A stretch of 64,000 nucleotides of DNA from an uncultured Gammaproteobacteria bacterium. Lineage in GTDB: Bacteria > Pseudomonadota > Gammaproteobacteria > Pseudomonadales > UBA5518. Below are positions 9,706 to 64,000 of this stretch, one piece after another (positions within the stretch are counted from its first letter, which is position 1; every line of letters begins with the position of its first letter). The stretch spans positions 13,613-77,612 of the forward strand of contig CAIYPF010000034.1 of the NCBI GenBank assembly GCA_903928015.1. Direction: 5' to 3'. Under the pieces are notes generated by a model, which did no database searches, was not told the origin of the DNA, and saw nothing but the letters and a program-made list of their open reading frames with translations. The translations under genes were made by a program, and so were the position numbers.

Positions 9706-10057
<352 letters not shown>

Positions 10058-37641: not shown

Positions 37642-37653
37642 GCGTTCATCGCC

Positions 37654-44131: not shown

Positions 44132-44148
44132 ACCCGGAGACGACACAG

Positions 44149-45603: not shown

Positions 45604-45607
45604 AACG

Positions 45608-45901
45608 ATGTTGCCTGCACGCAAAGACAAGAAGAAAGTCGTCGACGAGGTCTGGACCCCGGAACGGGTCCGCAGCTTCCTGGACCTTGAGCCGCCGGCA
45701 GGCATCGACGCCGACTTCCACCGCTTGCGTCGCGCCTACCAGAGCATGCGGGTGGAGGATTTCGAGGACTTCGTCGAAATGTTCTCGGCGGCGGGTGGAA
45801 AGTTCGACACGCGCGGCCCCGAGGGGAAGACGCTGGTCGAGGAGCTTCGCACCCACGCCCATGGCGCGTCTTTCGCGTCAGTGATCGAAAGCCTGGGCTG
45901 A
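45608..45901 (+). CDS. PA4642-like conserved small protein
   Basis: RKDKKKVVDEVW..F, DFHRL..AY..MR pattern recalled from the Pseudomonas PA4642 family. Confidence 0.7.
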   Translation: MLPARKDKKKVVDEVWTPERVRSFLDLEPPAGIDADFHRLRRAYQSMRVEDFEDFVEMFSAAGGKFDTRGPEGKTLVEELRTHAHGASFASVIESLG

Positions 45902-45953
45902 ACGCGCCCGTTACCTGAGGCCAGCGCCGATCAGCGCGCCGGCACGCAAGCGC

Positions 45954-47162
45954 TCAACGGCGGTGTTCGAGCATCTCCGGTCCGGGCTGGATGCAGGGCA
46001 GTTTCTGGCCGAGCAGTTGCTCGATGGGGCCCAGAAGAAAGGCATCGTCCTCACACGCGAAGCTGATGGACGTGCCAGAGGCCCCTGCGCGGCCGGTTCG
46101 GCCGATGCGGTGGACGTAGTCGTCAGGGTCTTCCGGCAGGGTGAAGTTGATGACGTGCGTCACGCCGTCGACGTGGATGCCACGCCCGGCCACGTCGGTG
46201 GCAACAAGCACGCGGTAGGCGCCACTGCGGAAGGCCTCCAGAGTCTTCAGCCGCTTCTGCTGCGGCACCTCGCCCGAGAGGATTCCGCAACTCACGCCCG
46301 CACGCTCAAGACGCTCGTGCAGACGCCGGACCTGATCGCGACGGTTGGCGAATACCATCACGCTCACCGCCTCGGGGCTGCGCAGCACGTTCAGCAGCAG
46401 GTCGAGTTTCTTGCGCGACTCGACGATATAGACGATCTGGTCAACGTCCTTCGCGGCCACGCTCTGCGGCTCGATCTCGACGCGCACGGGCTCGTGGGTC
46501 CACTGGTCGGAGAGCCGAACCACCTCCTCCGTGAAGGTGGCGCTGAAAAACATGGTCTGGCGGTGCGTTCTCGCGGGGGTCGCGCGGATGATGCGGCGTA
46601 CCTGCGGGATGAAGCCCATGTCGAGCATGCGGTCGGCTTCGTCGATAACCAGCATTTCGATGCGGTCGAGGTGGATCTCGCGCTGGCTGTGGAAGTCCAT
46701 GAGCCGGCCCGGCGTCGCGACCAGAATGTCGACGAAGCGGCGCGCAAGATCCTGCCGCTGGCGGTCGTAGTCCATGCCACCGATCAGCGTCACCACGTGG
46801 AAGCCGGTGTACTTGGCGAGGTCCTCGGCATCCTTGGCGATCTGCAGCACCAGTTCGCGCGTCGGCGCGATCACCAGCGCCCGCGGCTCGCCAGCATAGC
46901 GCGGCTCCTCGGGGGGATTGTTCAGCAGGTCGGTGAGGATGGTGAGCAGGAACGCGGCCGTTTTGCCCGTGCCGGTCTGTGCCTTGCCGATGCAGTCGTT
47001 GCCCGCCAGGGTGTAGGGCAGGACCTCCTGCTGGATGGGCGTGCAATGCGTGAAGCCAAGATCGTCGATCGCGCGGAGCAGAGGCTCGGGAAGGCCAAGC
47101 TGGCGAAAGCCCATGCGGGGGGGCTCGGTGGCCGGGCCGGTATCGGAAGGAATATCCTGCAT
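45954..47162 (-). CDS. rhlB: DEAD-box RNA helicase RhlB (Pseudomonas type)
   Basis: [41 protein letters not shown]. Confidence 0.88.
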
Positions 47163-47337
47163 CAATGCGTGCGTCCGTCGCGTTATAAGCGCCGCAGCTT
47201 ATCCGCTGTGGGTACTCACGGCAAATAAAGGCAGCAAGCACTGCCCGGCACATGTGGCCAAGGCCCCACTCGTCCCCCTAGAATTCCCCGGAGTCAGCGG
47301 GCCCAGACCCACAACGGTCCCCGCCCACAGGGAAGCC

Positions 47338-50220
47338 ATGGCAGCCCCCACCCCACGACCGCGCAGCCGAGTGCTGCTGCTTTGCGAAGACCCGGTGCTG
47401 GTACAGCTCCTGCGCGGGCTGCTGCGTGCCCTGCCCGAGCCCTGGCCAGAGGCCGTCGTTCCCGAGCGCATCCCCGACGATATCCCGCTGGCCGCCGCCG
47501 GCTGCTCGCTGTGCTTGCTGGAGCCGGGCGCAGGTGGTGTCACGGTACCGAGGCTGCTGTCGCGGTTGCGGGCGGCAGCGCCGGGTTTGCGCGTGGCCGG
47601 CGTGTTGGGCGAATCGAGCCGGCACGGTGACCGTGCCGAGGTCATGCAATGGCTGCGCGACGGCATGAGCGATCTGCTCGTCGCACGGGAGCTCTCGGCA
47701 AACACTCTCGCCACCCTGCTTGGCCACGCCGCTCCGGCTCTTGTAGCGGCACTGCCGCAGGCCACCGCGATCAACCCGCTCGCAGCACCCGCCGCCGCGC
47801 AAGGCTCCTGGCGCATCGCGCTAGTGGAGCAGCGCGCGAGCTTCGACGCCGACACGCTGGAGCGCCTCGGCTTCGGGCCCGGCGACATCGGCAACACCAT
47901 CGGCGACTGGAAATCCCTGCTGCACCACTCGGACCTCGATGTGCTGGTGAGCGCAGTGCAGTCTGCGCTGGACGGCAACACAGCCGCGGCACTCGAATAC
48001 CGCCTGCGCCGGCGCACCGGTGGCTGGGTCGAGGTGCGGAGCACGGGCATCACCGTGGAAGCAGACACACACGGAGCACCGGTAGCGGTGACCGGGCGCT
48101 TCACCGACTGCGTCGCCGCGACCGATGCTTGGCAGCCCCAGTCACCTCTGGACACCGCGCCCGCCCGGGCCAGCGCAACGGAGCAGCCTGCCACGTCACC
48201 GGCGGCCAGCCAAAGCCCGGCAACCAGCAAAAGCCCTGCAGCCGAACCGGCTGCCCCTCTCGATACAGCGGCGGCGTCAGTTCCCCTCGCTGCGGACCAC
48301 TCGCCGCCCGAGCCCCCACACGAAACAACCGCTCTCGCCAACCACGCACAAACCGCGATGCTGCGCTGCAGCCCGGACGCGGGCGGCGTGTTCCGTGTGC
48401 TGTGGCGCAACGCTTCCGCGGCGGGCGACACCGCCACCGCGGAGGCAACGTCGAGCAGGGCTTCGGACGTACTGCCAGCCTGCGACAACTTCCGCCTCGA
48501 GGATGCCCTCACCCGGGTTCACGGCACCGGCATACCGGAACAGCACGATGCCTTGCTGCTGGAGCGCGCGGACCCTCCCGCCTGGCGCCGCTTCCAGCTG
48601 TGCCGCCTGCCCGATGGCGATGTGCTGCTCGAGGTGCAGGACATCAGCGAGCTGGTGCGCAGCCAGTCGGCGCGGCGCAGCCAGGACGAGCTCACCGGCG
48701 CGATCGTGCGCTCCTTGCCCGTTACCACACTGCTCGTCGATGAACGCGGCATGATCGAATACTGCATCTCTGCCTCGGGCGGGGTGCTGGCCGAGGCCAC
48801 TCCCGGCATCGACGGCCGCCCGCTGGCGGCACTGCTCGGTGTGCGGGCGGGCGATGACTGCCTGCACCAGGTGACGCGGACGCTGAACACCAGCCGTCCT
48901 GGTCTGGTCACCCTGGAACTGGACACGCCCGGCGAACACCACTGGATCGAATGCCGCAGCACCCTGCTGCGCGGACGCCCTGGCACAGCACCGCGCGTGG
49001 TCCTTGCCTTGATCGACGTGAGCACGCGCGTGCAGGAAAGCCGTGAGGCACGGGCATCGAGCAGCCAGTTCAGGGCGGCGCTGCGCAGTCTTCCGGTTCC
49101 GCTCTACCTGAAAGACGTCGAGGGTCGCTACGCCGCACTGAACGGTGCCTTCGAACGGCTGCTCGGCGTGGAAGAGGGCATGCTCCTCGGCAAGACCGAT
49201 GTCGAAGTGTTCCCCGATGAACTCGCCACCGAACTGCACGACAACGAACGCAGGCTGCAGTCAAGCGAGCAGGGATTTACCGAGTTGCGCACCGTCGGCG
49301 TGGGCGCGGCCCGCGCGCGGCGCTGGTGCTTCGAATTCCCGGTCCGCGCGAGCGACGGCAGCCAGCAGGGCTGGGGCGGCTTGTGGCTCTCGTCTGGTGA
49401 CCTCCCGGCCGACTCGGGCGCTCCCGTGGTGGCAACACCCGAGCCCGAGTCCCTTCGCGCGCGCCGCCAGAAGGACCTCGACTCCGCCACCGCCTCGGTG
49501 ATCAATCGCGTCGAGGACGCGCTCACGGATTCCGGCGACTACGCCGACGTGCTGCGGCAACTGGAACAGCTTGTCGAGACCACCATGCAGGCGCAGGCCC
49601 TGATCCACCAGGTGGCGGGCCACGGCGAGGCCGCGAGCGCAAGGCCGCTGGTGGCCCTGGCGCCGCTCGCCCAGGAGATCATGGAGCTCGAGCGCATCCT
49701 CCTGCCCGCCTCCGCGCACTTCCAGAACGAGGTCGAACAGGGCCTGCCGCCGGCGCAGTGCGAGCCGGTGGCCTTCCACCAGATCCTCCTGCGCGGGATC
49801 CGTCACGCGCGCCGCGCACTGGGCGCCGAAGGCACGCTCTGCATCCGCCTGCGCCGCGCGAGCGGCGTGCGCCGCGCCTGCATCGCCTGCAGGGATGGAT
49901 TCGAAGGTGCTTTCGTCGAGTTGGTGATAGAGGACTCGGACACGCAACTCGACGACGACGCTCTCGCCTTCCTCACCACGCCAGGCGCACAGCGTCCGTC
50001 GGGAGGTGGCATCGATGACCTCGCAGAGGTGCTCGCGCTTTCGCACATACAGGGCGGCCACCTGCAGGTGCATCGCCTGGTACCCGGAGGCATCAGCCTG
50101 CATGTGTTCTTCCGGGCCGGTGATGCAACGGGCCTTGAAGGCCCCGGTGCGCGGGGGCGCTCCACCGTGATGCCCTTCCCGCTGGGGCGCAGCCAGATCC
50201 GCGGAACCCCCGCCGACTAG
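47338..50220 (+). CDS. Multi-PAS signalling protein with a degenerate N-terminal receiver and a degenerate histidine-kinase-like C-terminus
   Basis: REC-like fold pattern; four PAS-like segments (LEYRLRRRTGGW, EVQDISE, LIDVS, YLKDVEGRY..N..F..LLGKTD); HATPase-like tail (VELVIED, GGHLQV); start uncertain. Confidence 0.72.
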   Translation: MAAPTPRPRSRVLLLCEDPVLVQLLRGLLRALPEPWPEAVVPERIPDDIPLAAAGCSLCLLEPGAGGVTVPRLLSRLRAAAPGLRVAGVLGESSRHGDRAEVMQWLRDGMSDLLVARELSANTLATLLGHAAPALVAALPQATAINPLAAPAAAQGSWRIALVEQRASFDADTLERLGFGPGDIGNTIGDWKSLLHHSDLDVLVSAVQSALDGNTAAALEYRLRRRTGGWVEVRSTGITVEADTHGAPVAVTGRFTDCVAATDAWQPQSPLDTAPARASATEQPATSPAASQSPATSKSPAAEPAAPLDTAAASVPLAADHSPPEPPHETTALANHAQTAMLRCSPDAGGVFRVLWRNASAAGDTATAEATSSRASDVLPACDNFRLEDALTRVHGTGIPEQHDALLLERADPPAWRRFQLCRLPDGDVLLEVQDISELVRSQSARRSQDELTGAIVRSLPVTTLLVDERGMIEYCISASGGVLAEATPGIDGRPLAALLGVRAGDDCLHQVTRTLNTSRPGLVTLELDTPGEHHWIECRSTLLRGRPGTAPRVVLALIDVSTRVQESREARASSSQFRAALRSLPVPLYLKDVEGRYAALNGAFERLLGVEEGMLLGKTDVEVFPDELATELHDNERRLQSSEQGFTELRTVGVGAARARRWCFEFPVRASDGSQQGWGGLWLSSGDLPADSGAPVVATPEPESLRARRQKDLDSATASVINRVEDALTDSGDYADVLRQLEQLVETTMQAQALIHQVAGHGEAASARPLVALAPLAQEIMELERILLPASAHFQNEVEQGLPPAQCEPVAFHQILLRGIRHARRALGAEGTLCIRLRRASGVRRACIACRDGFEGAFVELVIEDSDTQLDDDALAFLTTPGAQRPSGGGIDDLAEVLALSHIQGGHLQVHRLVPGGISLHVFFRAGDATGLEGPGARGRSTVMPFPLGRSQIRGTPAD
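48199..48234. repeat. Imperfect 18-bp tandem duplication in a Pro/Ala/Ser linker
   Basis: CCGGCGGCCAGCCAAAGC / CCGGCAACCAGCAAAAGC. Confidence 0.6.
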
Positions 50221-50223
50221 GGC

Positions 50224-51021
50224 CTAGCCGAAGAGCTCGCGCAGACGCTCGCCGGGATCCGGCGAGCGCATCAGGCTCTCTCCCACAAGAAAGGCATTCA
50301 CACCGTGCGCGCGCATGGCCGCCACATCTTGTGCAGCCCCGATGCCGCTCTCGGTGATCACCAGACGCCCGGCAGGGATGCGGGGAAGCAGCGAGAACGT
50401 GGTGTCCAGCGTGGTCGCGAAGCTGCGCAGATCGCGGTTGTTGATGCCGAGCAGTGCATCCGGGACGTCCAGCGCGAGTTCCAGTTCGGCCGCGTCGTGC
50501 ACCTCGACCAGCACGTCCATGCCAAGCTCCCGGGCGAGCGCGGCGAGTTCGAGCATCAGCGCCTGCTGACCCACGAAGGCCGCCACGATCAGCAGTATGC
50601 AATCCGCACCCAGCACCCGCGCCTCGACGACCTGGTAGGCATCGATGGTGAAGTCCTTGCGCAGCACCGGCAGCGACACGGCTTCGCGGGCAGCCTGCAG
50701 GTAGGCATCAGCGCCCTGGAAGAAATCGATATCCGTGAGCACCGACAGGCAGGCCGCACCGCCGGCCGCATAGCTGCGCGCGAGCGACGGCGGATCGAAA
50801 TCCGCGCGGATGAGCCCTTTGCTGGGCGAGGCCTTCTTGATCTCGGCGATCACGGCACTGCGCCCCTCGGCAAGGCACGTCGAAAGCGCGCGGCCGAATC
50901 CGCGCGGTGCGGGCGCCGCAGCGCAGGCGGCGAGCAACTCGCTCTGGCTGCGCAAGGCACTGCGCACGGAAATCTCCTCGCGCTTGCGGGCAAGAATGCG
51001 GTCAAGGATTGTGCCGCTCAT
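50224..51021 (-). CDS. trpC: Indole-3-glycerol phosphate synthase
   Basis: [38 protein letters not shown]. Confidence 0.97.
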
Positions 51022-52064
51022 GAGGATGGCTCCAGGCATGCGGTGAAGGCCGCAAGCGCCTCGATACGCTCTGCGGCGAGCCCCGCGTGGATGATGTCCG
51101 ACGCCAGGGCGACGCCCTCGCGAGGGCTTGCAGCGATGCCCGCGACATAGAGCGCGCAGCCCGCGTTCAGGGCAATCATGTCGGCGGCCTTGGACGCATG
51201 CGGCCCACGGCGCTTGCCCAGGGCATCACGGATCAAGGCGGCCGATTCCGCCGCCGAGGCAACCTCGAGCCCGATCAGGCCCTGGCTGCTGATACCAAGG
51301 TCCTCCGGCACGAGGGTGTACTCGCGAATCCCGCCGTCACGCAGTTCCACCACGTGGGTACGCGTGGCGAGACTGATCTCGTCCAGCCCGTCCTCCGCAT
51401 GCACCACCATCACGCGCTCGGCTCCGAGCCGGGCGAGCACCTCGGCCATGGGCCGGCACAGGCGAGCGTTGAACACGCCCACCAGCAGACGTCGCGCGGC
51501 GGCAGGATTGGTGAGCGGGCCGAGTATGTTGAACAGCGTGCGCAAGCCGAGTTCGCGGCGCACGCCGACCGCATGACGCATAGCGCCGTGATGCGCGGGA
51601 GCGAACATGAAGCCGATGCCAAGATCCCGGACGCCGCGCGCGACGGCATCGGCGGGAATGCCGATACGCACGCCGAGCTGCTCGAGTACGTCCGCGCTGC
51701 CGCTCGCGCTGGAGACGCCGCGGTTGCCATGCTTCGCCACGTAGCCGCCGGCTGCCGCCACCACGAAGGCCGCGGCTGTCGAGACGTTGAACAGGTTGGC
51801 CCCGTCACCGCCCGTACCAACCACATCCACCAGCGGCTCCACATCGAGCACGACGGCAGTGGCGAGCTCACGCATCACTTCGGCGGCGGCCGTGATCTCG
51901 TCGATGGACTCGCCTTTCATGCGCAGCCCCACCAGGAAGCCGCCGATCTGCGCTTCGGTGCACTGCCCCGTCATGATCGCGTGCATCACCTCGCGCATCT
52001 CTGCTCTCTCGAGGTCGATGCGCATCACCACCCGCTCGAGCGCCTCGCGTATGTCCAACGCCAT
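51018..52064 (-). CDS. trpD: Anthranilate phosphoribosyltransferase
   Basis: GTGGDG, NVST, KHGNR, GPLTNPA, DGLDE. Confidence 0.97.
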
Positions 52065-52068
52065 GGAA

Positions 52069-52671
52069 TCAGGCCTCCGCGATTGCCCGGCGCCGCACGC
52101 CGAGAAAGTTGGCGAGCAGCTCGTGACCGTGCTCGGTGAGTATGGATTCGGGATGGAACTGGACGCCTTCGATGTCGAGTTCGCGATGGCGCACGCCCAT
52201 GATCTCGTCCATGGTGCCGTCCTCGTTCTCGGTCCAGGCGGTGATCTCGAGGCAGTCGGGGCAACTTGCGCGTTCGATCACGAGCGAGTGGTAGCGCGTG
52301 GCCGTGAAAGGGTTGGCGAGGCCGCTGAAGACGCCGGTGCCGTTGTGGTGGATGGGGGATGTCTTGCCATGCATCACCTGACGCGCGCGCAGCACACGAC
52401 CACCAAAAGCCTGCCCTATGCACTGGTGGCCGAGGCACACACCGAGCAACGGAATGCGTCCGGCGAGCTGGCGGATGAGTTCCATCGATATGCCCGCCTC
52501 GTTCGGCGTGCACGGTCCCGGCGATATGACGACTCTGGAGGGTGCGAGGCGCAGCACGTCGTCGACGGAGATCTCGTCGTTACGGAACACACGCACTTCT
52601 TCGCCCAGTTCCCCGAGGTACTGCACCAGGTTCCAGGTGAAGGAGTCGTAGTTGTCGAGCATCAGGAGCAT
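52069..52671 (-). CDS. trpG: Anthranilate synthase component II (glutamine amidotransferase)
   Basis: DNYDSFT, SPGP, GVCLGHQ, RYHSL, QFHPES. Confidence 0.96.
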
Positions 52672-52804
52672 GGGAATACCGCGGGGCGGGCCTCAGGCGC
52701 CGCATTATGCCCGTCCCTGCCCGGTTTTTGCGCTGTTCGACATTCGGCCCGATGGTATGGGGCTATACTCGCCCCGCCCGCACCGCCCTCTGACAGGATG
52801 CCGG

Positions 52805-54469
52805 ATGGACTTCTTCCGCCAATTCCGCACGCACTTCCTCTATGCGGGGCTGTTCAGCTTCGTCATCAACCTCATCCTGCTGGTGCCGCCGCTCTACATG
52901 ATCCAGGTCTTCGACCGGGTCCTCGTAAGCCGCAGCGAAGAAACCCTCGTCATGCTGACGATGGGCGCCGTCGGTATGCTGGTGATGCTCTTTTTCCTCG
53001 ACTCGCTACGCTCGGTACTGCTGCTGAGCGCTGGCGGCATGGTCGACCGTATGCTCGGCGAGCGCGTGATTTCGGCGCTCATCCAGAACGCAGGAAAAGT
53101 GAACCGCGCCGAGCAGGTACATGGCCTGCGCGATGTCTCGCTGCTGCGCAACTTCCTCGGCGGCGCGAGCATCATCGCGCTCTTCGACCTCCCCTGGGGC
53201 CTGTTCTTCGTCCTCTTCACGTTCTTCTTCCACGTCGTGCTCGGCGTGATCGCGTTACTCAGCGTGGGCGCGCTCTTCGCCCTCACCTGGAGCAACGAGA
53301 AAATGAACCGCACCAGCCTCGAGAAGGTGCAGGTGGACGGGCGCCGCGCAGGGCAGTTCATCGACCAGGGCTTGCGCAACGCCGACGTGCTGAACGCGCT
53401 GGGGATGCGCCGCGGTTTCGTCAGCCGCTGGGAGAGGCTGAACGCGCCAGTACTCGAGGGGCAGGAGCAAACCGGCCAACGCCTGAGCCGCATCAACAGC
53501 CTGAGCAAGGCGCTGCGACAACTGGTGCAGATCATCATGATGGGAGCCGGCGCCTGGCTGGTGGTGGCCGACAACATGACCTCCGGTGTGATGCTCGCCT
53601 CCACCGTCATCCTGGGCCGCGCGCTGGCACCCTTCGAGAGCCTGCTGGCGAACTGGAACAACCTGGTCGGCGCACGCGCCGCATATGCCCGCTTGCGGCC
53701 CCACCTCGAACCGAGACTCCTGCCTCCCGAAGTCCGCCTTCCCGCGCCGGAAGGGCGTATTTCCGTCGAGCGCGTGACCCTGGCGGGCGCCACGCCGGAC
53801 CGCCCCATCATCCGGGGCGTGGCCTTCGAACTCGCGGCCGGCGAGTCTCTGGCAGTGATCGGTCCCAGCGCATCGGGCAAGTCGAGCCTCGCCCGGCTGA
53901 TCGTCGGCGTGTGGACACCCACCACCGGTGCCGTGCGCCTCGACGGCGCGGAGATAGCAAAACTCGACCGCGACCATCTGGGGCCTTATCTCGGCTACCT
54001 GCCACAGGACGTGGAACTCTTCCCGGGCACCGTGGCAGAGAACATCGCCCGTCTGGGCGAACTCGACAGCGATGCCGTGGTGAAAGCAGCGCAGTACGCG
54101 CAGGCGCACGACTTCATCCTGCGTCTGCCGCAGGGCTACGACACGCAGATAGGCGGCGGCAGCTTCACGCTCTCCGGCGGCCAGATGCAGCGCATCGGCC
54201 TGGCGCGCGCGCTCTACGGACAACCGAAACTCGTGGTGCTCGATGAGCCCAACGCCAACCTCGACGCCGAGGGCGAGGCGAGTCTGCAGCACGTGGTGCG
54301 CCGGCTGCGTCAGGACAAGATCACGCTGGTACTGGTCACGCACAGGCCCGCGCTGCTCGACCAGATCGACAAGGTGCTGGTGATGCGCGAAGGCGCGCAG
54401 GAGGCCTTCGGCCCCCGTGAGGAGGTCCTCGCCAAGGTACTCCCCATGCGCCAGGCACGCAGCAGCTGA
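52805..54469 (+). CDS. Type I secretion ABC permease/ATPase (PrtD/AprD type, no C39 domain)
   Basis: PLYMIQVFDRVLVSRSEETL, Walker A GPSASGKS, GYLPQDVELF, LSGGQ, LDEPNANLD. Confidence 0.93.
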   Translation: MDFFRQFRTHFLYAGLFSFVINLILLVPPLYMIQVFDRVLVSRSEETLVMLTMGAVGMLVMLFFLDSLRSVLLLSAGGMVDRMLGERVISALIQNAGKVNRAEQVHGLRDVSLLRNFLGGASIIALFDLPWGLFFVLFTFFFHVVLGVIALLSVGALFALTWSNEKMNRTSLEKVQVDGRRAGQFIDQGLRNADVLNALGMRRGFVSRWERLNAPVLEGQEQTGQRLSRINSLSKALRQLVQIIMMGAGAWLVVADNMTSGVMLASTVILGRALAPFESLLANWNNLVGARAAYARLRPHLEPRLLPPEVRLPAPEGRISVERVTLAGATPDRPIIRGVAFELAAGESLAVIGPSASGKSSLARLIVGVWTPTTGAVRLDGAEIAKLDRDHLGPYLGYLPQDVELFPGTVAENIARLGELDSDAVVKAAQYAQAHDFILRLPQGYDTQIGGGSFTLSGGQMQRIGLARALYGQPKLVVLDEPNANLDAEGEASLQHVVRRLRQDKITLVLVTHRPALLDQIDKVLVMREGAQEAFGPREEVLAKVLPMRQARSS

Positions 54470-54479
54470 GCACATACCC

Positions 54480-55763
54480 ATGGCCATAAACGTCAAGCGC
54501 GTCACGCGCACCGGTCTCGCCATCATCGTCGTGGGTTTCGGCGGCCTGCTGCTGTGGGGCTCCACCGCCCCGCTGCACGGCGCCGTGATGATGGGCGGCA
54601 TGGTCAAGGTCGAGGGCAGCCGCAAGACCATCCAGCACAACGAGGGCGGGATCGTCAAAACCATCTTCGTCGGGGACGGCGACCGTGTGGAGCGGGGCCA
54701 GACACTGATCCAGCTCGAGGATGCGAGCGTGGCAGCGCAGTACGGCATCGTGCGCAGCGCCCTCGATGCGGAACTCGCGCGTCTCGCCCGGCTCACGGCC
54801 GAGGCCACGCTTGCGCAGGCGCCGGTGTTCGGCGTCGAGCTGATGCACCGCGCGTCGGAGGCAACAGTGCGCGAACTTCAGGAGCGGGAGCTGGGGCTCT
54901 TCACATCGCGTCGCCACGCCCTGCTCGAACAGCAACGGCTTATCCGGGACCAGATCGGAGAGATCCGCCAGGAGATCGCCGCCCTGGGCGCACAACGCAA
55001 GGCCGAGATGGAAGCGCTTTCGCTCGCCGACAAGGAGCTCGACAGCTACGAGGCGCTGGAAGGGAAGGCCTACGTAGCGGAGGTGCGGGTGCTCGCACAG
55101 CGGCGAATGGTCTCGGAGTACCAGTCGCGCGCCGAGGAGCGCTCGGCGGAATCCGCGCGCGCGGCACAGCGCATCACCGAACTCGAGATCCGCATTGCCG
55201 GCCTGAGCAACGAATACGCCAGCAGGGCTGCGGAAGAACTCAAGGAAAACAGCTCCAAGATCCAGGAGCTGCGTGAACGCCTGCAACCCTCGGAAGACGC
55301 CATGCGCCGCCAGGCCATCATCACGCCGGTAGCCGGCCGTGTGATCGGCCTGCGGGTGCATACAGAAGGCGCCACCGTCGGCGCCCGCGAGCCGCTGATG
55401 GATATCGTGCCCGACAGCCAGGACGTGCAGATCGAGGCGCAGGCGCCGCTCGATTCCATCAAACAGCTGCACATAGGGCAGTTCGCGGAAATCCGCTTCA
55501 CGGCACTGCCCTACCGCACCACGCCGATGGTCGTGGGAGAGGTGACGTACATATCTCCCGACGCGCTCGCCGACAAGGACGGTCGCCCGTTCTTCCAGGT
55601 CCACATACGTCCGGACGCGCAATCGCTGCTGGATGCGAAGATCAGCTCGCTGGACCCCGGCATGGCCGCCGAGGTCTACATCCAGACGCAATCACGCACC
55701 GCGCTGCAATACATCATGCGGCCGATCGCCGATTCCGTGCGTCGCTCATTCCGCGAAAGCTGA
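54480..55763 (+). CDS. HlyD/PrtE-family type I secretion membrane fusion protein
   Basis: N-terminal TM, APLHGAV, KTIQHNEGGIV, long coiled coil, PGMAAEV, RTALQY, FRE C-terminus. Confidence 0.93.
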   Translation: MAINVKRVTRTGLAIIVVGFGGLLLWGSTAPLHGAVMMGGMVKVEGSRKTIQHNEGGIVKTIFVGDGDRVERGQTLIQLEDASVAAQYGIVRSALDAELARLARLTAEATLAQAPVFGVELMHRASEATVRELQERELGLFTSRRHALLEQQRLIRDQIGEIRQEIAALGAQRKAEMEALSLADKELDSYEALEGKAYVAEVRVLAQRRMVSEYQSRAEERSAESARAAQRITELEIRIAGLSNEYASRAAEELKENSSKIQELRERLQPSEDAMRRQAIITPVAGRVIGLRVHTEGATVGAREPLMDIVPDSQDVQIEAQAPLDSIKQLHIGQFAEIRFTALPYRTTPMVVGEVTYISPDALADKDGRPFFQVHIRPDAQSLLDAKISSLDPGMAAEVYIQTQSRTALQYIMRPIADSVRRSFRES

Positions 55764-55783
55764 AGCTCGGGGTGGCCACCCGG

Positions 55784-57844
55784 ATGCCCCGCATTCCACG
55801 ACCCGAACGGGAGGCACTGCGCCTCGGGCTCGCCTGCACGCTGGCGGGCTGGGCGCTCGGTTGCGCGCTGCTCTGGCTGCCGCTCTGGCAGGTACTGGAG
55901 TCGAAGGTCTTCGACCTCCTCAGCATCTACACCGCTCCCTTCAGGACCGAGATGCCGATCACCATCGTCGGCATAGACGAGGCCTCCTCGACGCAACTGA
56001 ACCAGGGCTGGCCTTTCCCGCGGAGCCTGCATGCCCAACTCATAGAAAAACTGAACGCCGCGGGCGCCGCAGTCGTGGCCTTCGACGTGCAGTTCTCCGA
56101 ACCCTCGACGCCTGAAGAGGACCAGCGCCTCGCCGAGGCCATCGCCAACGCGGGCAATGTGGTGCTCGCTTCCAAGTACGAGTATCACGAGACCGCCGCC
56201 ACGCGGATCTTCATGCGCATGGACCCCATCCCGATCTTCACCGAGGCGGGCGCGAGCGTGGGCCTCACGGACATGGAACTGGCCGGTGACCAGGTGCCGC
56301 GGCACATGGCTCTGGGGGAAGACGCGTTCTGGCGCGTGGCGATCCGCAAGCTCGTGGAAGTGATGCCCGATGCCGGGCTCACGGAGCCCGGGGTGCCGGA
56401 TGGCGCGATGATCCGCTACCTCGGCCCGCGCAATACCTTTCCCGTCGTCTCGTACTATCAGGTGATCAACGAAGATCCTGATGTACAGGAGGCGCTCTCG
56501 GGCGCGGTGGTGCTGGTGGGCCGTGACGCCGGGGCCAGCGCCGACATCAACCTGGCGCAAGCGGATTCCTTTCCCACGCCCTTCACCCTCACCACGGGGA
56601 TGCTGTCATCGGGCGTGGAGATCCACGCCACGCAGATGGAAGACGCACTGCTGAACGCGATGCTCGAGCCGGCGGGCAGGATGCAGAACCTCATCGTCCT
56701 GAGCGTCGCCATGCTGCTTACGCTGCCCTGGCTGGTGTGGTGGCATCCGCTGCGCAGCAGCCTGCTGGTGTTCGCCTGCATCGGCGCAACCCTGGGCGCC
56801 GCCTTCCTGCTGTTCGGCCGGGGCATCTGCGACACGGGCAGCTTCGCGGGGCTTTTCAGCGAGGATTGCAGCGCGGATGGCGGCGCACTTCGCCACATAT
56901 GGATTGCCTGCGCAGCGCCCGTGACGGGCATGGCCGCTGCCTGCCTGGGTACGGGCACCGGCTCCTTTCTCACGGAGCGACGCCGCGCTGGCCGCATACG
57001 TAACGCCTTCGCGATGTATGTCTCGGGCGACGTGGTGCAAGAGATGATCGCGCACCCCGAGAAATTGCGTCTCGGTGGCGAAAGACGCGAAATCAGCGTG
57101 CTGTTCACCGACCTCGCGGGGTTCACCAGCCTGTCGGAGAAACTCGAACCCGACGCCGTCGCGCTGGTGGTGAACACCTACCTGAACGCCATGACGCAGG
57201 TGATCATGCGCAATGGCGGAACAGTGGACAAATTCATCGGCGACGCCGTGATGGCTTTCTGGGGCGCGCCGCTCGACGACGCAGAGCACGCGCGGCACGC
57301 CCTGCAGTCGGCGCTGGAAATGCAGCAGGCCATGAGCGACTTGCAGCCACGCTTCGCGGAGCTGGGCGCGGAGGGGCTCGCGCTGCGCATCGGGATCAAT
57401 GCGGGCCCCGCCATCGTGGGCAACATGGGCTCGGACCTGCGGTTCGACTACACCGCGCTCGGCGACACCGTGAATCTCGCCTCCCGTCTGGAAGGTGCCA
57501 ACAAGGCCTATGACACTCCGATACTCGTGGCCGAGACAATCGCGCAGCAGGCGCGCCCTGCCTTCCCGATGCGGCAGGTCGACCGGATACGCGTGAAAGG
57601 GAAAGCTCAGGCCGTGAACGTTTTCACGCCGTGCAGCGACGCCTCTCTCGTGACGCTCACGGAACAGGCCTGGCAGGCTTATCTCGGGAGGGACTGGGCG
57701 AAGGCGAGAGCCGCGCTGCAGGAACTGCGCGGTATCGCGCCGGAAGACCGGATGGCGCTGATGATGGAAGAGCGCATCGGCGACTGCGAAAGGCAGGAGC
57801 CCGCGCCGGATTGGGACGGCTCCGTGGGCCTCGACAAGCTCTAG
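55784..57844 (+). CDS. CHASE2-domain class III adenylate cyclase
   Basis: IVGIDE..WPFPR, FDVQF, GVEIHA (CHASE2); TM helices; FTDLAGFT, DKFIGDAVM, YTALGDTVNLASRLE; helical C-tail; GTG 55772 is an alternative start. Confidence 0.92.
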   Translation: MPRIPRPEREALRLGLACTLAGWALGCALLWLPLWQVLESKVFDLLSIYTAPFRTEMPITIVGIDEASSTQLNQGWPFPRSLHAQLIEKLNAAGAAVVAFDVQFSEPSTPEEDQRLAEAIANAGNVVLASKYEYHETAATRIFMRMDPIPIFTEAGASVGLTDMELAGDQVPRHMALGEDAFWRVAIRKLVEVMPDAGLTEPGVPDGAMIRYLGPRNTFPVVSYYQVINEDPDVQEALSGAVVLVGRDAGASADINLAQADSFPTPFTLTTGMLSSGVEIHATQMEDALLNAMLEPAGRMQNLIVLSVAMLLTLPWLVWWHPLRSSLLVFACIGATLGAAFLLFGRGICDTGSFAGLFSEDCSADGGALRHIWIACAAPVTGMAAACLGTGTGSFLTERRRAGRIRNAFAMYVSGDVVQEMIAHPEKLRLGGERREISVLFTDLAGFTSLSEKLEPDAVALVVNTYLNAMTQVIMRNGGTVDKFIGDAVMAFWGAPLDDAEHARHALQSALEMQQAMSDLQPRFAELGAEGLALRIGINAGPAIVGNMGSDLRFDYTALGDTVNLASRLEGANKAYDTPILVAETIAQQARPAFPMRQVDRIRVKGKAQAVNVFTPCSDASLVTLTEQAWQAYLGRDWAKARAALQELRGIAPEDRMALMMEERIGDCERQEPAPDWDGSVGLDKL

Positions 57845-59073
57845 ACGCTCCCGGGCAAGAGCTCGCGCAGCATCCCGAGGTACGCCGGCAGGCTGTGCTC
57901 CCGGAACGAGAACCTGCCTTCGATCATCTCCCGCGCGGCGCGCACCACCGGCGTGACATCGGCCTCGAGGATGCGCACGGCCTGCTCCACCAGTTGCCCG
58001 CGATCGAAGAAATCGAAGAGGTAGCCGTTCTCGCCGTCCTGGATCATCTCCTGCACGGGCGGCGTGGAAGAACCCAGCACCGGCGCACCGCAGGCCATCG
58101 CCTCCAGCATCGACCACGACAGCACGAAGGGATAACTGAAGTAGATGTGGAGCCTGCTCAGCTGCAGCAGCTTCAGGTAATCGCCATAGGGAATGCGCCC
58201 CACGAAATGCGTGCGGCTCATGTCGAGCTGCGCGCCCACCTCGGCGAGCAGCATCTCGCGGTAGCAGGCGTGGGGTTTGGGCGGCGCCGCGCCGTAGCTC
58301 ACGCCGTCGGCACCGACCAGCACGAACTGCGCGCCGGGCAAGCGGCGCTGCAATTCGGGCAGTGCGCGCATGAAGACGTGGAAGCCGCGATAGGGCTCGA
58401 GCTGGCGGCTGACGAAGGTCACGACCTGCTGCTCGCGGGAGAGCACCCGGCCATCGGGCAGCCGGAAGCGCGCAGCAGGATCCGGCGCGACCGTTTGCAG
58501 GTCGAGGCCCTCGTGGATCACGCGGATGCGGGGCTTTTCGCGCTCGGGATAGGTGGATCTCTGCCAGGCGATGGGGCTGATGCCGGCGTCCGCCTCGGAA
58601 AGTGCGTGCAACTGCGTGCTGTTGCGGATGCGGAGCTTGAAGGTGGTGTCGATGGTGGAGGGAAACTCCGGATCGAAGCCTACGTCCGCGCCCACGGCGC
58701 GATAGAAAAACTCGAAGTAGGACACGATGCGCGCGTCGGGGAAGACGTCACGCAGGAAGAGCATCTCGCCCCATGCCGGGTGACCTATCACCACATCAGG
58801 CACGAAGCCCTTGCTGCGCAGATCGATGAAGACGCGCGTGGCGTCCTGGCCGCGCCTCACCGCGCCCTCGAAGGATCGCAGGTAATGGTGCGTGCCTTCG
58901 CCCGCGGCCCCGCGTCCCTTGTAGGCAATCACGGGGAAGCCGAAGCCGGCCGTGCGCGCGCCAAGGTTGGCGGCATCGCCCATCCCGACCACCTCGTGTC
59001 CCTGGGCTACCAGCCAGGGCGCGAGGTGCTTGAACTGCCCGGGGAAATTCTGGTGCACGAAGAGCACGCGCAT
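57841..59073 (-). CDS. GT4 glycosyltransferase, ExpC-like subfamily
   Basis: MRVLFVHQNFPGQF, HPAWGE, LEPYRG, YPFVLSWSMLEAM. Confidence 0.88.
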   Translation of the reverse strand: MRVLFVHQNFPGQFKHLAPWLVAQGHEVVGMGDAANLGARTAGFGFPVIAYKGRGAAGEGTHHYLRSFEGAVRRGQDATRVFIDLRSKGFVPDVVIGHPAWGEMLFLRDVFPDARIVSYFEFFYRAVGADVGFDPEFPSTIDTTFKLRIRNSTQLHALSEADAGISPIAWQRSTYPEREKPRIRVIHEGLDLQTVAPDPAARFRLPDGRVLSREQQVVTFVSRQLEPYRGFHVFMRALPELQRRLPGAQFVLVGADGVSYGAAPPKPHACYREMLLAEVGAQLDMSRTHFVGRIPYGDYLKLLQLSRLHIYFSYPFVLSWSMLEAMACGAPVLGSSTPPVQEMIQDGENGYLFDFFDRGQLVEQAVRILEADVTPVVRAAREMIEGRFSFREHSLPAYLGMLRELLPGSV

Positions 59074-59257
59074 GCGCTGGGAAAACCTCGTCGGGTACGG
59101 ATGTTCCGAAGGCCGGACCGGAAAGGCCTTCCGCGCCGGAGTATACATCCCGGGAGCAGCGCAGCAGGCAGGGGTGACAGGAGGCCTCCGTTGGCCCGAG
59201 AATCCGGCCCGAGCGTATGCATCGGCCACCGGTCCGCGAAGCTCGGAGATCCCTCAC

Positions 59258-60004
59258 GTGCAGACCCACGCCTACAGCCGCCCCTGGCGCAGCCCTTTCC
59301 ACCCCGCGAACCGCATGCGTCCGCTGGTGGCTCTGCGCGCCGTACGGGCGCTGCTGGAGGACCCGCAGTCAACGGGCGAGGTCTTCAAGGTGATCGAGGC
59401 CCTCAAGGGCGGCAGCCTGCGCCAGGCGGTGATGCGGATGGCCTCATCCGAGGCTGGCCGATCGCTGCTCCACGCCAAGCCCTCGATAATCGCGAGTCTC
59501 TCGGATCGCACCTCGCTGGCCGCCATGCCCGAGGGAAGCCTCGGCCGCGCCTATCTCGACTTCGTCCTCGCCGGCAACCTGAGCGCCGACGGCCTGGTGC
59601 AGGCAAGTGAAGAGGCGCCACGCGACGCCGCCACCAGCTACCTCGATCCCGAGGAACTCTGGCTCGCCGACCGCCTGAGGGATTTCCACGACATCCAGCA
59701 CGTTCTCACCGGCTACGGCCGCGACGAGCTCGGCGAGCTCTGCCTGCTCTCCTTCATGACCACCCAGACCTACAACCGCGGCATCTCCTTCATCGTGTTC
59801 ATGGGGCGGCGCGAATACCGCCGCGGCATGCCGCAGATCGACGTGGATGCGCTGGTGAACGAAGGGCGCGACATCGCGCGAGCCGCAGCCTGGCTGCCGG
59901 AAGTCCGGTGGGAAGAACGACTGGGCGAACCGCTCGCCGCACTGCGCGAGGAACTCGGACTGCGTCCGCCCCTGCGTTATCTTGCTGCCTCTGGCGCCGC
60001 CTGA
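59258..60004 (+). CDS. Coq4-family protein
   Basis: PEGSLGRAY, and HDxxH-x11-E as HDIQHVLTGYGRDELGE; GTG 59258 with GGAG upstream, or ATG 59315. Confidence 0.82.
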   Translation: MQTHAYSRPWRSPFHPANRMRPLVALRAVRALLEDPQSTGEVFKVIEALKGGSLRQAVMRMASSEAGRSLLHAKPSIIASLSDRTSLAAMPEGSLGRAYLDFVLAGNLSADGLVQASEEAPRDAATSYLDPEELWLADRLRDFHDIQHVLTGYGRDELGELCLLSFMTTQTYNRGISFIVFMGRREYRRGMPQIDVDALVNEGRDIARAAAWLPEVRWEERLGEPLAALREELGLRPPLRYLAASGAA

Positions 60005-60040
60005 ACCCGACACCCGACACACCATGCCGGAGACATACCC

Positions 60041-61054
60041 ATGCGCGCATTGTTCTGTGTCGTAGCGCTCTTCCTGATGCAGGCCACGGCCTTCGCCGAC
60101 ACACCCATCCGGCTCGTGATCCACGGCGGAGCGGGCACCATCGATCGCAGCAAGATCACGCCCGAACTCGAGCAGCAATACAACGCCGCGCTCGCTCAGG
60201 CGCTGCGCGCGGGTCACGCCGTGCTGCTGCGTGGCGGCCCGCCCGTAGACGCAGTGGTAGCGGCCATCACCGTGATGGAGGACTCGCCGCTCTTCAACGC
60301 GGGCAAGGGAGCGGTCTTCACGCACGAGGGCCGCAACGAACTCGATTCCTCGATCATGGACGGCAGCAACCGCGCGGCCGGGGCGGTGGCAGCCGTCACC
60401 ACCATCCGCAATCCCATTCTCGCAGCTCGCGCCGTGATGCAGCGCTCGCCCCACGTGATGCTGATGGGTGCCGGCGCCGAGGCCTTCGCCAAAGAAGCCG
60501 GGCTGGAGCTGGTGGACCCGTCCTACTTCCGCACCGAGATGCGCTGGAAGCAACTCCAGAATGCGATCAAGGAACAGAAAATCCTGCTCGACCACGACGG
60601 CCCGGCGCAGCCCAAAGACGAAAAACGCGGCACGGTGGGCGCAGTGGCGCTGGACGCCAAAGGCAACCTGGCGGCAGGCACATCGACCGGCGGCATGACC
60701 AACAAGCGCTGGGGCCGTGTGGGTGATTCGCCGATCATCGGGGCCGGCACCTGGGCCGACAACCGCTCGGTTGCTGTCTCGGCCACCGGGACCGGCGAGA
60801 TGTTCATCCGCAGCGCGGCCGCACACCAGGTGGCTGCGCGCGTCATGTACGCCGGCGAGACACCGGCCGCAGCTGCCACGCACACGCTGGAAGAGATCGC
60901 CGCCATCGCGGGTGACGGCGGGATGATCGTGATGGATGCCAAGGGCAACTACGCGATGAAGTTCAATACCGAAGGCATGTACCGCGGCACCATCGGCGCC
61001 GATGGCAAGCCCTGGGTGGGCATCTACGGCGAGCCCGAAAAACCCGTCCCCTGA
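60041..61054 (+). CDS. iaaA: Isoaspartyl peptidase / plant-type L-asparaginase (Ntn hydrolase) with signal peptide
   Basis: IHGGAG, FNAGKG, G|TVGAV nucleophile Thr, TSTGG, GRVGDSP, ATGTGE; N-terminal MR-hydrophobic-AFA. Confidence 0.9.
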   Translation: MRALFCVVALFLMQATAFADTPIRLVIHGGAGTIDRSKITPELEQQYNAALAQALRAGHAVLLRGGPPVDAVVAAITVMEDSPLFNAGKGAVFTHEGRNELDSSIMDGSNRAAGAVAAVTTIRNPILAARAVMQRSPHVMLMGAGAEAFAKEAGLELVDPSYFRTEMRWKQLQNAIKEQKILLDHDGPAQPKDEKRGTVGAVALDAKGNLAAGTSTGGMTNKRWGRVGDSPIIGAGTWADNRSVAVSATGTGEMFIRSAAAHQVAARVMYAGETPAAAATHTLEEIAAIAGDGGMIVMDAKGNYAMKFNTEGMYRGTIGADGKPWVGIYGEPEKPVP

Positions 61055-61060
61055 CTGGGC

Positions 61061-62548
61061 TCAGCCGCCGCTCATGGCGGCTGCGCGCATCATTGCCCGG
61101 GCCTTGCTGAGGGTTTCTTCCCACTCGAGTTCGGGCACCGAATCCGCCACCACTCCCGCACCGGCCTGCACGTGCAGCAGGCCGTCCTTGATGACCGCGG
61201 TGCGGATGGCGATGGCAGTGTCCATCTCGCCCTGCCACGACACATAACCCACCGCGCCGCCATAGATCCCGCGCCGCGAAGGCTCGATGGAATCGATGAT
61301 TTCCATCGCCCGGATCTTGGGCGCCCCGGAGAGCGTGCCCGCCGGCAGCGTGGCGCGCAGCACGTCCATGGGTCCGAGACCCGCCCGCAACTGCCCCGTC
61401 ACGTTCGAGACGATATGCATCACGTGCGAGTAGCGCTCCACGATCATCTTCTCGGTGACGCGCACGCTGCCCGTCTCGGCAACACGGCCCACGTCGTTCC
61501 GGCCGAGATCGATCAGCATCAGGTGCTCAGCGATCTCCTTCGGGTCGGCGAGCAGTTCCGCCTCGAGCGCGGCGTCTTCCTCCGGCGTGGCGCCGCGCCG
61601 GCGGGTACCGGCGATGGGCCGCACGGTCACCTCGCCGCCGGCAAGCCGCACGAGGATCTCGGGAGAAGAGCCCACGATCTGGAACTCGCCCAGATCAAGG
61701 AAGAAAAGATAAGGCGAGGGGTTGAGGTGCCGGAGCGCGCGGTAGAGATCGACAGGATCTCCGGCGAAGGGCGCGCTCAGGCGCTGCGAGGGCACCACCT
61801 GCATCACGTCGCCGGCGAGGATGTACTCGCGGATGCCACGCACAGCATCGAGGAAGCGCTCGCGCCCGAATTCGGACACGAAGGACGCCTCCACGGCGCG
61901 GGCACGCGGACTGTCAGAGGCGGCAGCGGCCAGATCGATGCTGCCCTGGCGCGGCGCGGGCTCTTCGAGTCGTCGCTGCATGACATCGAGGCGCGCCATG
62001 CCTGCGGCCTCGGCGCCAGCCTCGCGGGGATCGACCATGCACACCAGCAGGATCGCGCCGGCGAGATTGTCGAAGATCAGGAATTCCTCGCAGGCCAGCA
62101 GCAGGATGTCGGGCGTTCCCAGCCGGTCAGGCGGCGCGCCTGCAGCGAGCCGGCGCTCGACGTATCGCGCGCAGTCGTAGCCGAAGAAACCCACCAGTCC
62201 GCCGGCGAACATGCCGAGCGACGGGTGCGTGTAGACCCGTTCGCGGTGCACGTAGTCATCGACGAAGGCGAGAGGGTCGATGCCCTCGTGACGCTCTGTC
62301 TCTTCGCCCGCGAGCAGCACGCGCACCGTGTGGCCGCGGGCCTCGATGCGGCGCGCACAGGGCAGGCCGATGATCGAGTAACGGCCCCATTTCTCGCCGC
62401 CCTGCACTGATTCGAGCAGGAAGCTGCCTGCTCCGGCAAATCGCAGATAGGCGCCGAGCGGGGTGTCGAGGTCGGCGAGCAAGCGGCGCACCAGAGGCAC
62501 CCGCGTGTAGCCCTCTGCGGCCAGTGTCGCGAGAGTTGGCGTCGTCAC
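61061..62548 (-). CDS. trpE: Anthranilate synthase component I
   Basis: [48 protein letters not shown]. Confidence 0.97.
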
Positions 62549-62585
62549 GCGGCGACGTCCCTGCGCTCGAAGGGCGGGCGGGATC

Positions 62586-63266
62586 TCACGGGGATTTCAC
62601 GGCTATCGCGAGCTGCTCGCGCATGGCCGATATCACCTCGGCGTAATCAGGCGCGCCGTAGATCGCCGAACCTGCCACGAACGTGTCGGCGCCGGCTTCT
62701 GCAATCGCGCGGATGTTGCCCGTGCCCACGCCGCCGTCGATCTCGAGGCGGATGGGCAGGCCGCTCTCGTCGATCATCCTCCGCGCCTCGCGGAGCTTCG
62801 GCAATGTCGAGGGAATGAACTTCTGCCCGCCGAAACCCGGGTTCACCGACATCAGCAGCATGAAGTCGAGCTTGTCCATCACATAGCGCGCCGCCTCGAG
62901 GCTGGTGGCGGGATTGAAGACCAGCCCCGCCTTGCAGCCGCGCTCACGGATAAGCGAGAGCGTGCGGTCCACGTGGGTGCTCGCCTCGGGGTGGAAGCTG
63001 ATCCAGCTGGCTCCCGCGTCGGCGAAAGCGATCGCGAGTTCATCGACCGGAGTGACCATGAGGTGGACGTCGATGGGCGCGGTGACGCCGTGATGGCGCA
63101 GCGCGCGGCAGACCATCGGCCCGATGGTGAGATTGGGTACGTAGTGGTTGTCCATGACGTCGAAGTGGATCACGTCGGCGCCGGCGCGCAGCACGGCGTT
63201 CACCTCGTCACCGAGCCGTGCGAAGTCGGCGGAGAGGATCGAAGGCGCGATCAGATAACCGGACAT
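62586..63266 (-). CDS. rpe: Ribulose-phosphate 3-epimerase
   Basis: [34 protein letters not shown]. Confidence 0.98.
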
Positions 63267-63354
63267 GGGGCGATCCTGTGAGTCATTCGGGACAGCCGCG
63301 ATTGTAGTGGCTGCGACGAGTCTGGCGCGACCGCACCGCGGCTATACTCCCGGC

Positions 63355-64000
63355 ATGATCGCAAGCAAGTCACACCTGACAGGGCTACGGGGCCGCGCAA
63401 CTGCGGCCCTGCTGGCATTGTGTTTTTCCGCCATGATGCAGGCAGCGGACCCTCCGGCCGCACCGCCCCCCGCGGAGCCCGGCGCAGCGCCTGCGCCCGA
63501 GGCCCCCGCCGACACCGCGCCGGCAACCATCCCTTCGGATCTCGATCGCCTTGCCGAGGCGCTGCCTGCAGAACACCGCATGCTGCAGGCCGATGGCGCG
63601 GATTTCGATGTCTTCGTCAACGCCATCACGGGCGGCCCTCCAAAGGGCGCACTGGTGCTGATCCCCGGTGACGGTGGCCTGCCGCCCACCTCCGACGGTC
63701 TCACTGCGCTGCGCAGGGATTTGCCCGCGCATGGCTGGTCCACCTGGCTGATAAGCCTGCTGCGGCCGCCGCGTGTGCAGTCGGTCAGCGATACGCCTGA
63801 CGCCGCAGCACCCGCCGCAACCACCCAAAGTCCCGACGCCGGCAGCACCGCGCCGGCCGAGCCCGCAGAAGCCAAACCCGCCGCACAGCAGGAAGCGGAT
63901 TTCCCCGAGCCCGCAGCCGCACCCGGGCTCGATGCCCGCATCACGGCGCAGATGCAGGACTGGATCACCGCCAACCAGCCGCGCATCGCTGCTGCCGTCG
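63355..64000 (+). CDS. Exported DUF3530-like (alpha/beta-hydrolase-like) protein, partial
   Basis: Manual translation from ATG 63355: signal-like N-terminus, Pro/Ala linker, KGALVLIPG, LRRDLPAHGWSTWLISL; runs off the window. Confidence 0.65.
   Translation, partial: MIASKSHLTGLRGRATAALLALCFSAMMQAADPPAAPPPAEPGAAPAPEAPADTAPATIPSDLDRLAEALPAEHRMLQADGADFDVFVNAITGGPPKGALVLIPGDGGLPPTSDGLTALRRDLPAHGWSTWLISLLRPPRVQSVSDTPDAAAPAATTQSPDAGSTAPAEPAEAKPAAQQEADFPEPAAAPGLDARITAQMQDWITANQPRIAAAV

Follow-up and report, generated by a model that had tools for sequence, protein, structure and literature searches.

We analysed a 64,000-nucleotide stretch of contig C34 (hereafter the window) from the genome of an uncultured gammaproteobacterium, in which a type I secretion ATP-binding cassette (ABC) protein, its periplasmic adaptor, a CHASE2 adenylate cyclase and a GT4 glycosyltransferase are encoded side by side. 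Sequence comparison indicates that these four genes are two layers, an exporter-glycosyltransferase trio and a cyclase inserted into it, and not one system. The trio is homologous, with high confidence, to ExpD1/ExpD2/ExpC of Sinorhizobium and is probably the main exporter of repeats-in-toxin (RTX) proteins in this genome. The cyclase, we conclude with good confidence, is a sensor of the NsrA/CyaK type whose predicted partner, a large FecR-TPR-barrel protein, is encoded beside RTX genes on another contig, C51. That this sensor is functionally wired to RTX secretion is plausible, with the chances about evenly balanced, and such wiring would be lineage-specific. Genomes are designated here by G and a number (that of the window is G000), and fetched loci by L and a number. 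The locus comprises the following features.

52672..52804, no strand: 133 bp separating the divergent trpG and ABC genes, presumed to hold the promoter of the exporter operon
52805..54469, + strand: PrtD-type type I secretion ABC permease/ATPase, 554 residues (TIGR01842, 636.6 bits against a cut-off of 510.15)
54480..55763, + strand: HlyD-family type I secretion periplasmic adaptor (membrane fusion protein), 427 residues (TIGR01843, 330.8 bits against a cut-off of 208.65)
55772..57844, + strand: class III adenylate cyclase with a CHASE2 domain, NsrA/CyaK-associated subfamily (CHASE2, PF05226, 136 bits; Guanylate_cyc, 89 bits)
57841..59073, - strand: ExpC-like GT4 glycosyltransferase, 410 residues (PF12000, 195 bits, plus GT1), convergent with the cyclase gene

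The positions and arrangement of these genes, as described in an earlier note on this DNA, are confirmed. A gap of 10 bp separates the ABC and adaptor genes, and one of 8 bp lies between the adaptor gene and the GTG start of the cyclase at 55772 (20 bp if the alternative ATG at 55784 is taken); the stop codons of the cyclase and GT4 genes overlap over 4 bp (57841-57844). No consensus sigma-70 site appeared in the promoter scan of 52672..52804, and neither in the window locus nor in that of G006 did scanning for promoters and terminators yield anything informative between genes.

Homologues of all three trio proteins are encoded side by side on pSymB of Sinorhizobium meliloti (41% identity for the ABC protein, 30% for the adaptor and 43% for GT4). 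There, the GT4 homologue is located about 1 kb from the ABC and adaptor genes, with a MarR gene between them and a gene for a 244-residue RTX protein behind. The pSymB record carries no annotation, and the names ExpC, ExpD1 and ExpD2 are those that we presume for its open reading frames, drawing on PMC1403797. The layout fits the order expC, expG, expD1, expD2, expE1 published in the excerpts of that paper considered here. According to the same excerpts, the ExpD1/ExpD2 exporter of S. meliloti secretes calcium-binding ExpE1 and is itself required for galactoglucan, production of exopolysaccharide II (EPS II) is blocked in expD mutants, and ExpC is assigned to synthesis of the galactoglucan polysaccharide and not to protein glycosylation (PMC1403797).

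That exporter and ExpC-like GT4 recur as a unit, as the earlier note had it, is borne out by the pSymB match and by a survey of the 80 best GT4 loci, taken with one genome per species. Full-length ABC and adaptor genes lie within 9 kb of the GT4 gene at 19 of the 80 loci, with three more cut by contig ends, and RTX-like genes were detected by tblastn at 27. A type I secretion system (T1SS) and/or RTX genes accompany GT4 at 35-37 loci (about 45%), across Proteobacteria and Planctomycetota; many of the loci are on short contigs, so that these counts are floors. When 20 T1SS-linked loci were scanned with Pfam, RTX proteins were confirmed at seven, and OEP genes and polysaccharide genes were also found. 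Several trio loci contain polysaccharide genes (rmlA/C, Wzy, UDP-glucose dehydrogenase, sugar transferase), and the exporters at some GT4 loci are of the C39-like HlyB kind, not the PrtD kind. The glycosyltransferase family itself is large and conserved (E <= 1e-20 in 7,999 of 8,000 scored candidates; 50-57% identity across phyla). Solved structures match GT4 only as generic GT4 enzymes (BshA, PimA, MshA) and only over the C-terminal half; therefore, the acceptor is not inferable from them. We also observed a TPR-GT41 gene (O-GlcNAc-transferase-like) by the exporter at two loci, one from a Sulfuritalea metagenome-assembled genome (MAG; L063, 13535-15769) and one from a Planctomycetota MAG (L088, 5164-6918), neighbours that would be in keeping with a module that, in some of its versions, glycosylates proteins.

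The window ABC protein, which lacks an N-terminal C39 or C39-like domain, is the sole gene product of G000 above the TIGR01842 cut-off; the next best, on C43, is HlyB/LssB-like and reaches 341 bits. The earlier note had called the exporter cargo-less, which holds locally and fails for the genome as a whole. A profile search gave 160 HemolysinCabind matches in G000, none of them on C34 among the 150 of 160 matches listed, and the motif GGxGxDxUx occurs 388 times in the genome, with at least five copies on 19 contigs, against two isolated matches in the six frames of the window. Likewise, the statement that no TolC, RTX, FecR-barrel or CRP-like gene is present stands within the window and does not stand genome-wide. 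Whole-genome searches for TolC/OEP and cyclic-nucleotide-binding proteins found none on the window part of C34 and located four OEP genes elsewhere (C110, C100, C143 and C86, the last beside an RTX gene); the C51 partner and three Crp-family genes lie outside the window too. Further, genomes with the GT4 had 18-119 RTX matches and those without it 0-28, which is a trend and not a test, as the 21 genomes compared are kin. From the class of the ABC protein and this cargo pool, we consider the trio to be probably the main RTX exporter of the genome.

The trio and the cyclase stand within a block (52672-61060: ABC, adaptor, cyclase, GT4, Coq4-like and asparaginase genes) that is wedged between trpE and trpGDC, with the following features at its edges and right end.

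52069..52671, - strand: trpG, left edge of the inserted block, with trpD and trpC next; in outgroups trpE abuts trpG
59315..60004, + strand: Coq4-family gene (PF05019, 75.9 bits), inside the trp-operon insert and outside the proposed system
60041..61054, + strand: Asparaginase_2 gene, within the inserted block; in some sister species the only gene that separates trpE from trpG
61061..62548, - strand: trpE, right edge of the inserted block, as seen from gene order against outgroups

Among 16 genomes of the genus that were searched, the cyclase was found in five (G000, G002, G006, G009 and G013). The latter four keep the gene order of the window, at identities to it of 71-73% for the cyclase, 85-89% for the ABC protein, 79-85% for the adaptor and 82-88% for GT4. 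G005 shows the order trpG-ABC-adaptor-[SIS_2]-GT4-asparaginase-trpE and has no cyclase, nor did tblastn (E up to 10) or blastn reveal a cyclase remnant in its adaptor-GT4 spacer. In G011, likewise without the cyclase, the ABC-adaptor pair and GT4 face each other, their aligned ends 25 bp apart. trpE lies directly beside trpG in G003, as it mostly does in the fetched outgroups showing both genes, and G015 and G007 have the asparaginase gene alone between the two. Since G005 and G011 keep the trio without the cyclase and G003 has a bare trpE-trpG junction, comparative gene order indicates that the trio came first, by insertion into the trp operon, and that the cyclase is a later, clade-specific insertion between adaptor and GT4. 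The 25-bp junction in G011 and the SIS_2 gene in the same spot of G005 single out the adaptor/GT4 junction as a hot spot of insertion.

The proposal of a single four-gene system, made in the earlier note, is thus not supported: besides G005 and G011, only one of the 80 GT4 loci had any cyclase-domain match, and none of 80 metagenome loci surveyed for relatives of the cyclase carried a T1SS. The four-gene linkage does recur in the four other species of the genus. Two details of the junction may be added. The SIS_2 gene of G005 (phosphoheptose-isomerase-like; L027, 4942-5889, - strand) is co-oriented with GT4 in the place of the cyclase and may hint at the sugar donor pathway of the glycosyltransferase. 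In G009 (L022, about 2900-2950), a tandem repeat with the unit CTTGCGGATAA in about three copies separates the stop codons of the cyclase and GT4 genes; the window has none.

The cyclase appears to be an intact enzyme. Counted from the GTG, it has 690 residues, with the catalytic domain at 439-614 followed by a conserved C-terminal tail. The hydropathy profile gives hydrophobic segments at about 16-38, 304-325 and 327-353 and a weaker fourth near 376-397, so that, with the PF05226 match, the CHASE2 domain is flanked by membrane segments and precedes the cyclase domain. Class III cyclases use two metal-binding Asp, a substrate-binding Lys and Thr, and a transition-state Asn and Arg. The presence of this set, claimed in the earlier note, is upheld by alignment to Pseudomonas aeruginosa CyaB (PDB 3r5g; E 3.4e-35 for the catalytic domain), in which D447, K487, D491, T561, N568 and R572 of the window cyclase meet identical residues. 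Five of the six are invariant across 14 members of the subfamily, and members at 42-77% identity have the whole architecture in common. The ratio of nonsynonymous to synonymous substitution rates (0.17-0.26, compared to 0.08-0.17 for neighbouring genes) indicates that the cyclase is under purifying selection. Of the 14 aligned proteins, the window cyclase and its two nearest homologues alone have an insertion of 23 residues (about 358-380) that contains two cysteines and sits in the loop preceding the final membrane segment; should the fourth segment cross the membrane, this loop would be periplasmic. G000 encodes a second CHASE2 cyclase of another subfamily (680 residues; C79:4314-6353, L208), followed by a Peptidase_M48 gene, a pairing that is also present in metagenome locus L142. 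Matches on C116 of G000 agree with a further cyclase gene next to one of CRP type.

The partner was found through the cyclase relatives. At the four closest of the 80 metagenome loci (L125-L128, 39-49% identity), a large gene for a FecR-TPR protein, with or without a TonB-like barrel, adjoins the cyclase in all four cases, while it is adjacent at none of the 76 more distant loci. The same adjacency exists at L216, L252, L214 and L215, and in Rhizobium sp. BG4 and S. meliloti pSymB, where the cyclase has 36-37% identity to that of the window. We presume the pSymB pair to be NsrA-CyaK. G000 contains a single FecR-TPR-barrel homologue (C51:38169-41732; E 6.5e-115 to the L126 protein; Pfam FecR and TPR), so that cyclase (C34) and partner (C51) are on separate contigs and not adjacent. 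The C51 gene is divergent from two large RTX genes, at a distance of 143 bp. Across 41 genomes, the partner occurs in five, and these are the same five that have the cyclase. A divergent arrangement of the partner gene and an orthologue of the second RTX gene (RTX2; 53-58% identity) recurs in G006, G009 and G002, where the other flanking genes of C51 were not found. A predicted complex of the periplasmic part of the partner (residues 36-560) with CHASE2 (40-312) had a median score of 0.26, compared to a mark of 0.32, a value that weighs on neither side as to binding. On homology and co-occurrence, we have good confidence that the cyclase is an NsrA/CyaK-type sensor with the C51 protein as its partner. 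The S. meliloti CHASE2 cyclases respond to a protein signal via NsrA, according to excerpts of PMC13001267, and cAMP-Clr of S. meliloti controls genes for succinoglycan and other surface polysaccharides, according to excerpts of PMC5498481.

A second case joins the same elements. L125, an unrelated metagenome contig, carries in succession an RTX gene, a PF12000 GT4 gene, the FecR-TPR gene, the cyclase (49% identity) and another RTX gene, with the GT4 directly after a small RTX gene. Through the partner beside RTX genes on C51 and through L125, the cyclase can be tied to RTX biology, a point in favour of the earlier note. The pair that is normally adjacent has been split in the window clade and both halves lie beside secretion or RTX genes; on this ground, together with L125, we set the functional wiring of the sensor to RTX secretion at about an even chance. 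Because both halves ended in such places, the sensor is probably also co-expressed with RTX secretion.

The mechanism that we propose would run as follows. Together with a TolC-family protein from another part of the genome, the exporter would secrete RTX proteins, and GT4 would make or modify a glycan that accompanies them, comparable to ExpC with ExpE1 and galactoglucan. Via the outer-membrane partner, a cue from outside the cytoplasm (probably a protein) would reach the CHASE2 domain and prompt the cyclase to make cAMP, to be read by a Crp/Vfr-type regulator. The sensor, probably expressed together with RTX secretion, would probably report on it or tune it. Candidate readers of cAMP are the three Crp-family proteins of G000, among them a conserved 219-residue protein on C20 that we regard, given its conservation, as the Vfr-type regulator. 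A Crp-family regulator specific to the cyclase-bearing species was also considered and rejected, as the two genes compared, on C122 and C20, are present across genus and order.

Several observations weigh against wiring of the sensor to secretion. The five genomes with cyclase and partner form one clade, so that their co-occurrence counts as a single event. K487 is the catalytic residue that varies among the 14 subfamily members, and the cyclase evolves faster than its neighbours in the genus species (71-73% identity compared to 79-89%). The gap between adaptor and cyclase is 8 bp in G000, G002 and G013 and about 132-170 bp in G006 and G009; hence co-transcription need not be conserved. Beyond the genus, the ABC and adaptor genes of a T1SS were found at none of the 80 cyclase-relative loci, and GT4 at one. 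A class-wide sample gave FecR-TPR homologues in 28 of 399 other genomes (a tally that includes the unpublished genome G079, which is outside the 31 loci fetched); a cyclase is next door at 16 of these 31 loci, and RTX, GT4 or T1SS matches occur at none. An order-wide sample added one genome with the pair, G619, again without RTX, GT4 or T1SS neighbours. Among the closer-subfamily lineages that are independent and have readable flanks, the secretion tie is present in two of eight, the window clade and L125 (L128 is left out of this count, being too short to judge). Any tie between cAMP sensing and RTX secretion would be lineage-specific.

In a rival reading, the cyclase and its partner would be an ordinary environmental sensor that this sub-clade acquired, with the cyclase gene landing in a permissive spot between two convergent genes; its cue would have nothing to do with secretion, and its cAMP would enter the pool available to Crp in general. 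In favour of this, T1SS, RTX and GT4 neighbours are missing from most lineages of the pair (all 31 fetched loci, and L126, L127, L216, L252, L214 and L215; two rhizobial loci count among those without them), the junction is a hot spot with 25 bp in G011 and SIS_2 in G005, the long spacer precedes the cyclase in G006 and G009, and RTX genes are so many in this genome that adjacency to one is less surprising. On the other side, both halves of a normally adjacent pair ended beside secretion-related genes, and the pairing of FecR-TPR and RTX2 genes is kept in four species despite differing other flanks. L125 independently unites the pair, RTX genes and the same GT4 family, and in three of the five species a gap of 8 bp is too short to hold a promoter. 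Weighing both, we think it rather unlikely, albeit worth serious consideration, that the sensor is a mere passenger.

Clearly less probable is the reading of the earlier note in which GT4 would have as its substrate a surface protein secreted by the type I system, and the CHASE2 cyclase, through cAMP, would report on or control export of the resulting glycoprotein. It would agree with the linkage of PF12000 GT4 to T1SS and/or RTX genes at 35-37 of 80 loci, with the GT41-TPR genes at two of these, and with the L125 GT4 that follows a small RTX gene. It is at odds with ExpC, the one studied case, being assigned to galactoglucan synthesis in the excerpts of PMC1403797, and with the polysaccharide genes at several trio loci; further, the portions of text returned by a full-text search included no paper on glycosylated type I substrates with the PF12000 family. 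We would also call improbable, at a similar level, an autocrine loop in which the FecR-TPR-barrel protein recognises the cell's own secreted RTX protein, possibly bearing or binding a glycan made by GT4, and signals via the CHASE2 cyclase. If such a loop existed, cAMP would measure the surface RTX protein and feed back on its secretion, and on its broader side, PF12000 glycosyltransferases would be a general and unstudied accessory of RTX and type I secretion. Finally, export by the ABC-adaptor pair of a GT4-made glycoconjugate (a polysaccharide or glycolipid), with RTX proteins using another exporter, has very little probability in our judgement: the blocked EPS II production of S. meliloti expD mutants (excerpts of PMC1403797), the trio loci inside polysaccharide clusters and the second, HlyB/LssB-like ABC protein on C43 (341 bits) would speak for it, but the window ABC protein is well above the cut-off of the PrtD model for protein exporters (636 bits), the S. 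meliloti pair secretes a protein, ExpE1 (same excerpts), and RTX genes flank the trio at many loci.

A full-text literature search found no paper joining CHASE2, adenylate cyclase and type I secretion. To our knowledge, the cue of CHASE2 cyclases with NsrA-like partners is not known outside rhizobia, and work on ExpC-like GT4 proteins has so far been confined to the member encoded in the S. meliloti galactoglucan cluster. The locus offers a concrete pairing: in a genome rich in RTX genes, the cyclase is inside the sole operon for a PrtD-class exporter and its partner is beside RTX genes. Separately, the company that GT4 keeps with T1SS and RTX genes at about 45% of 80 loci points to a widespread role in RTX protein biology.

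The remaining genes of the window are housekeeping genes (mur/mra, RNase P RNA, petABC, his, lpt, rpoN, mreBCD), and G+C content is high, at about 0.63-0.71 across the profiled part (44000-64000). The Coq4-family gene, a bacterial member of its family, is positioned between the GT4 and asparaginase genes of the inserted block. On the other flank, most relatives (G011, G005, G003, G007, G001, G010, G018, G022 and G019) have a conserved Crp-family gene no more than about 2 kb from trpD, in the direction of trpC; identities are 66-97% over most of the order and fall to 49% in the remotest genome of the search. G000 has this gene on C20 (28152-28808) instead, and in its place a 1061-residue multi-PAS protein without a recognised output domain abuts trpC (47035-50220, + strand). 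Further away, class A RNase P RNA (339 bits) lies upstream of mraZ at 9704-10055 (- strand). A 1596-residue open reading frame between a CN-hydrolase gene and maf-mreDCB (33751-38538, + strand) had no Pfam match at E <= 1e-5; from its position, it may encode a YhdP/AsmA-like envelope protein.

Compared with known systems, the window trio resembles ExpD1/ExpD2/ExpC in consisting of a PrtD-class ABC protein, a HlyD adaptor and a GT4 with PF12000. On pSymB, numerous genes for polysaccharides surround the trio, together with those of a MarR regulator and a small RTX protein, whereas the window trio stands alone in a trp operon, with neither an RTX nor a polysaccharide gene in the window, with GT4 convergent and with the cyclase inserted. 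The sensor resembles the S. meliloti set of NsrA/CyaK, CyaD1, CyaD2 and Clr: the window cyclase is 36% identical to the pSymB gene, which is likewise accompanied by a FecR-TPR-barrel protein (24-33% identity to the C51 partner over three segments), and G000 likewise has Crp-family regulators. It differs in that the pair is split over contigs, with the cyclase in a secretion operon and the partner beside RTX genes, and in its host, which is a free-living freshwater-type bacterium, whereas S. meliloti is a symbiont. With CyaB of P. aeruginosa (3r5g), the window cyclase has identical metal-binding, substrate and transition-state residues and differs in the sensor part, which is CHASE2 here; CyaB carries a MASE2 domain. 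The exporter is of the kind of PrtDEF, AprDEF and RsaDEF, which serve RTX proteases, lipases and S-layer proteins, as its ABC protein and adaptor exceed the curated cut-offs, it lacks a C39-like domain and its genome is rich in RTX proteins. In contrast to those operons, the one described here has a glycosyltransferase and a cyclase in the place of the outer-membrane and substrate genes.

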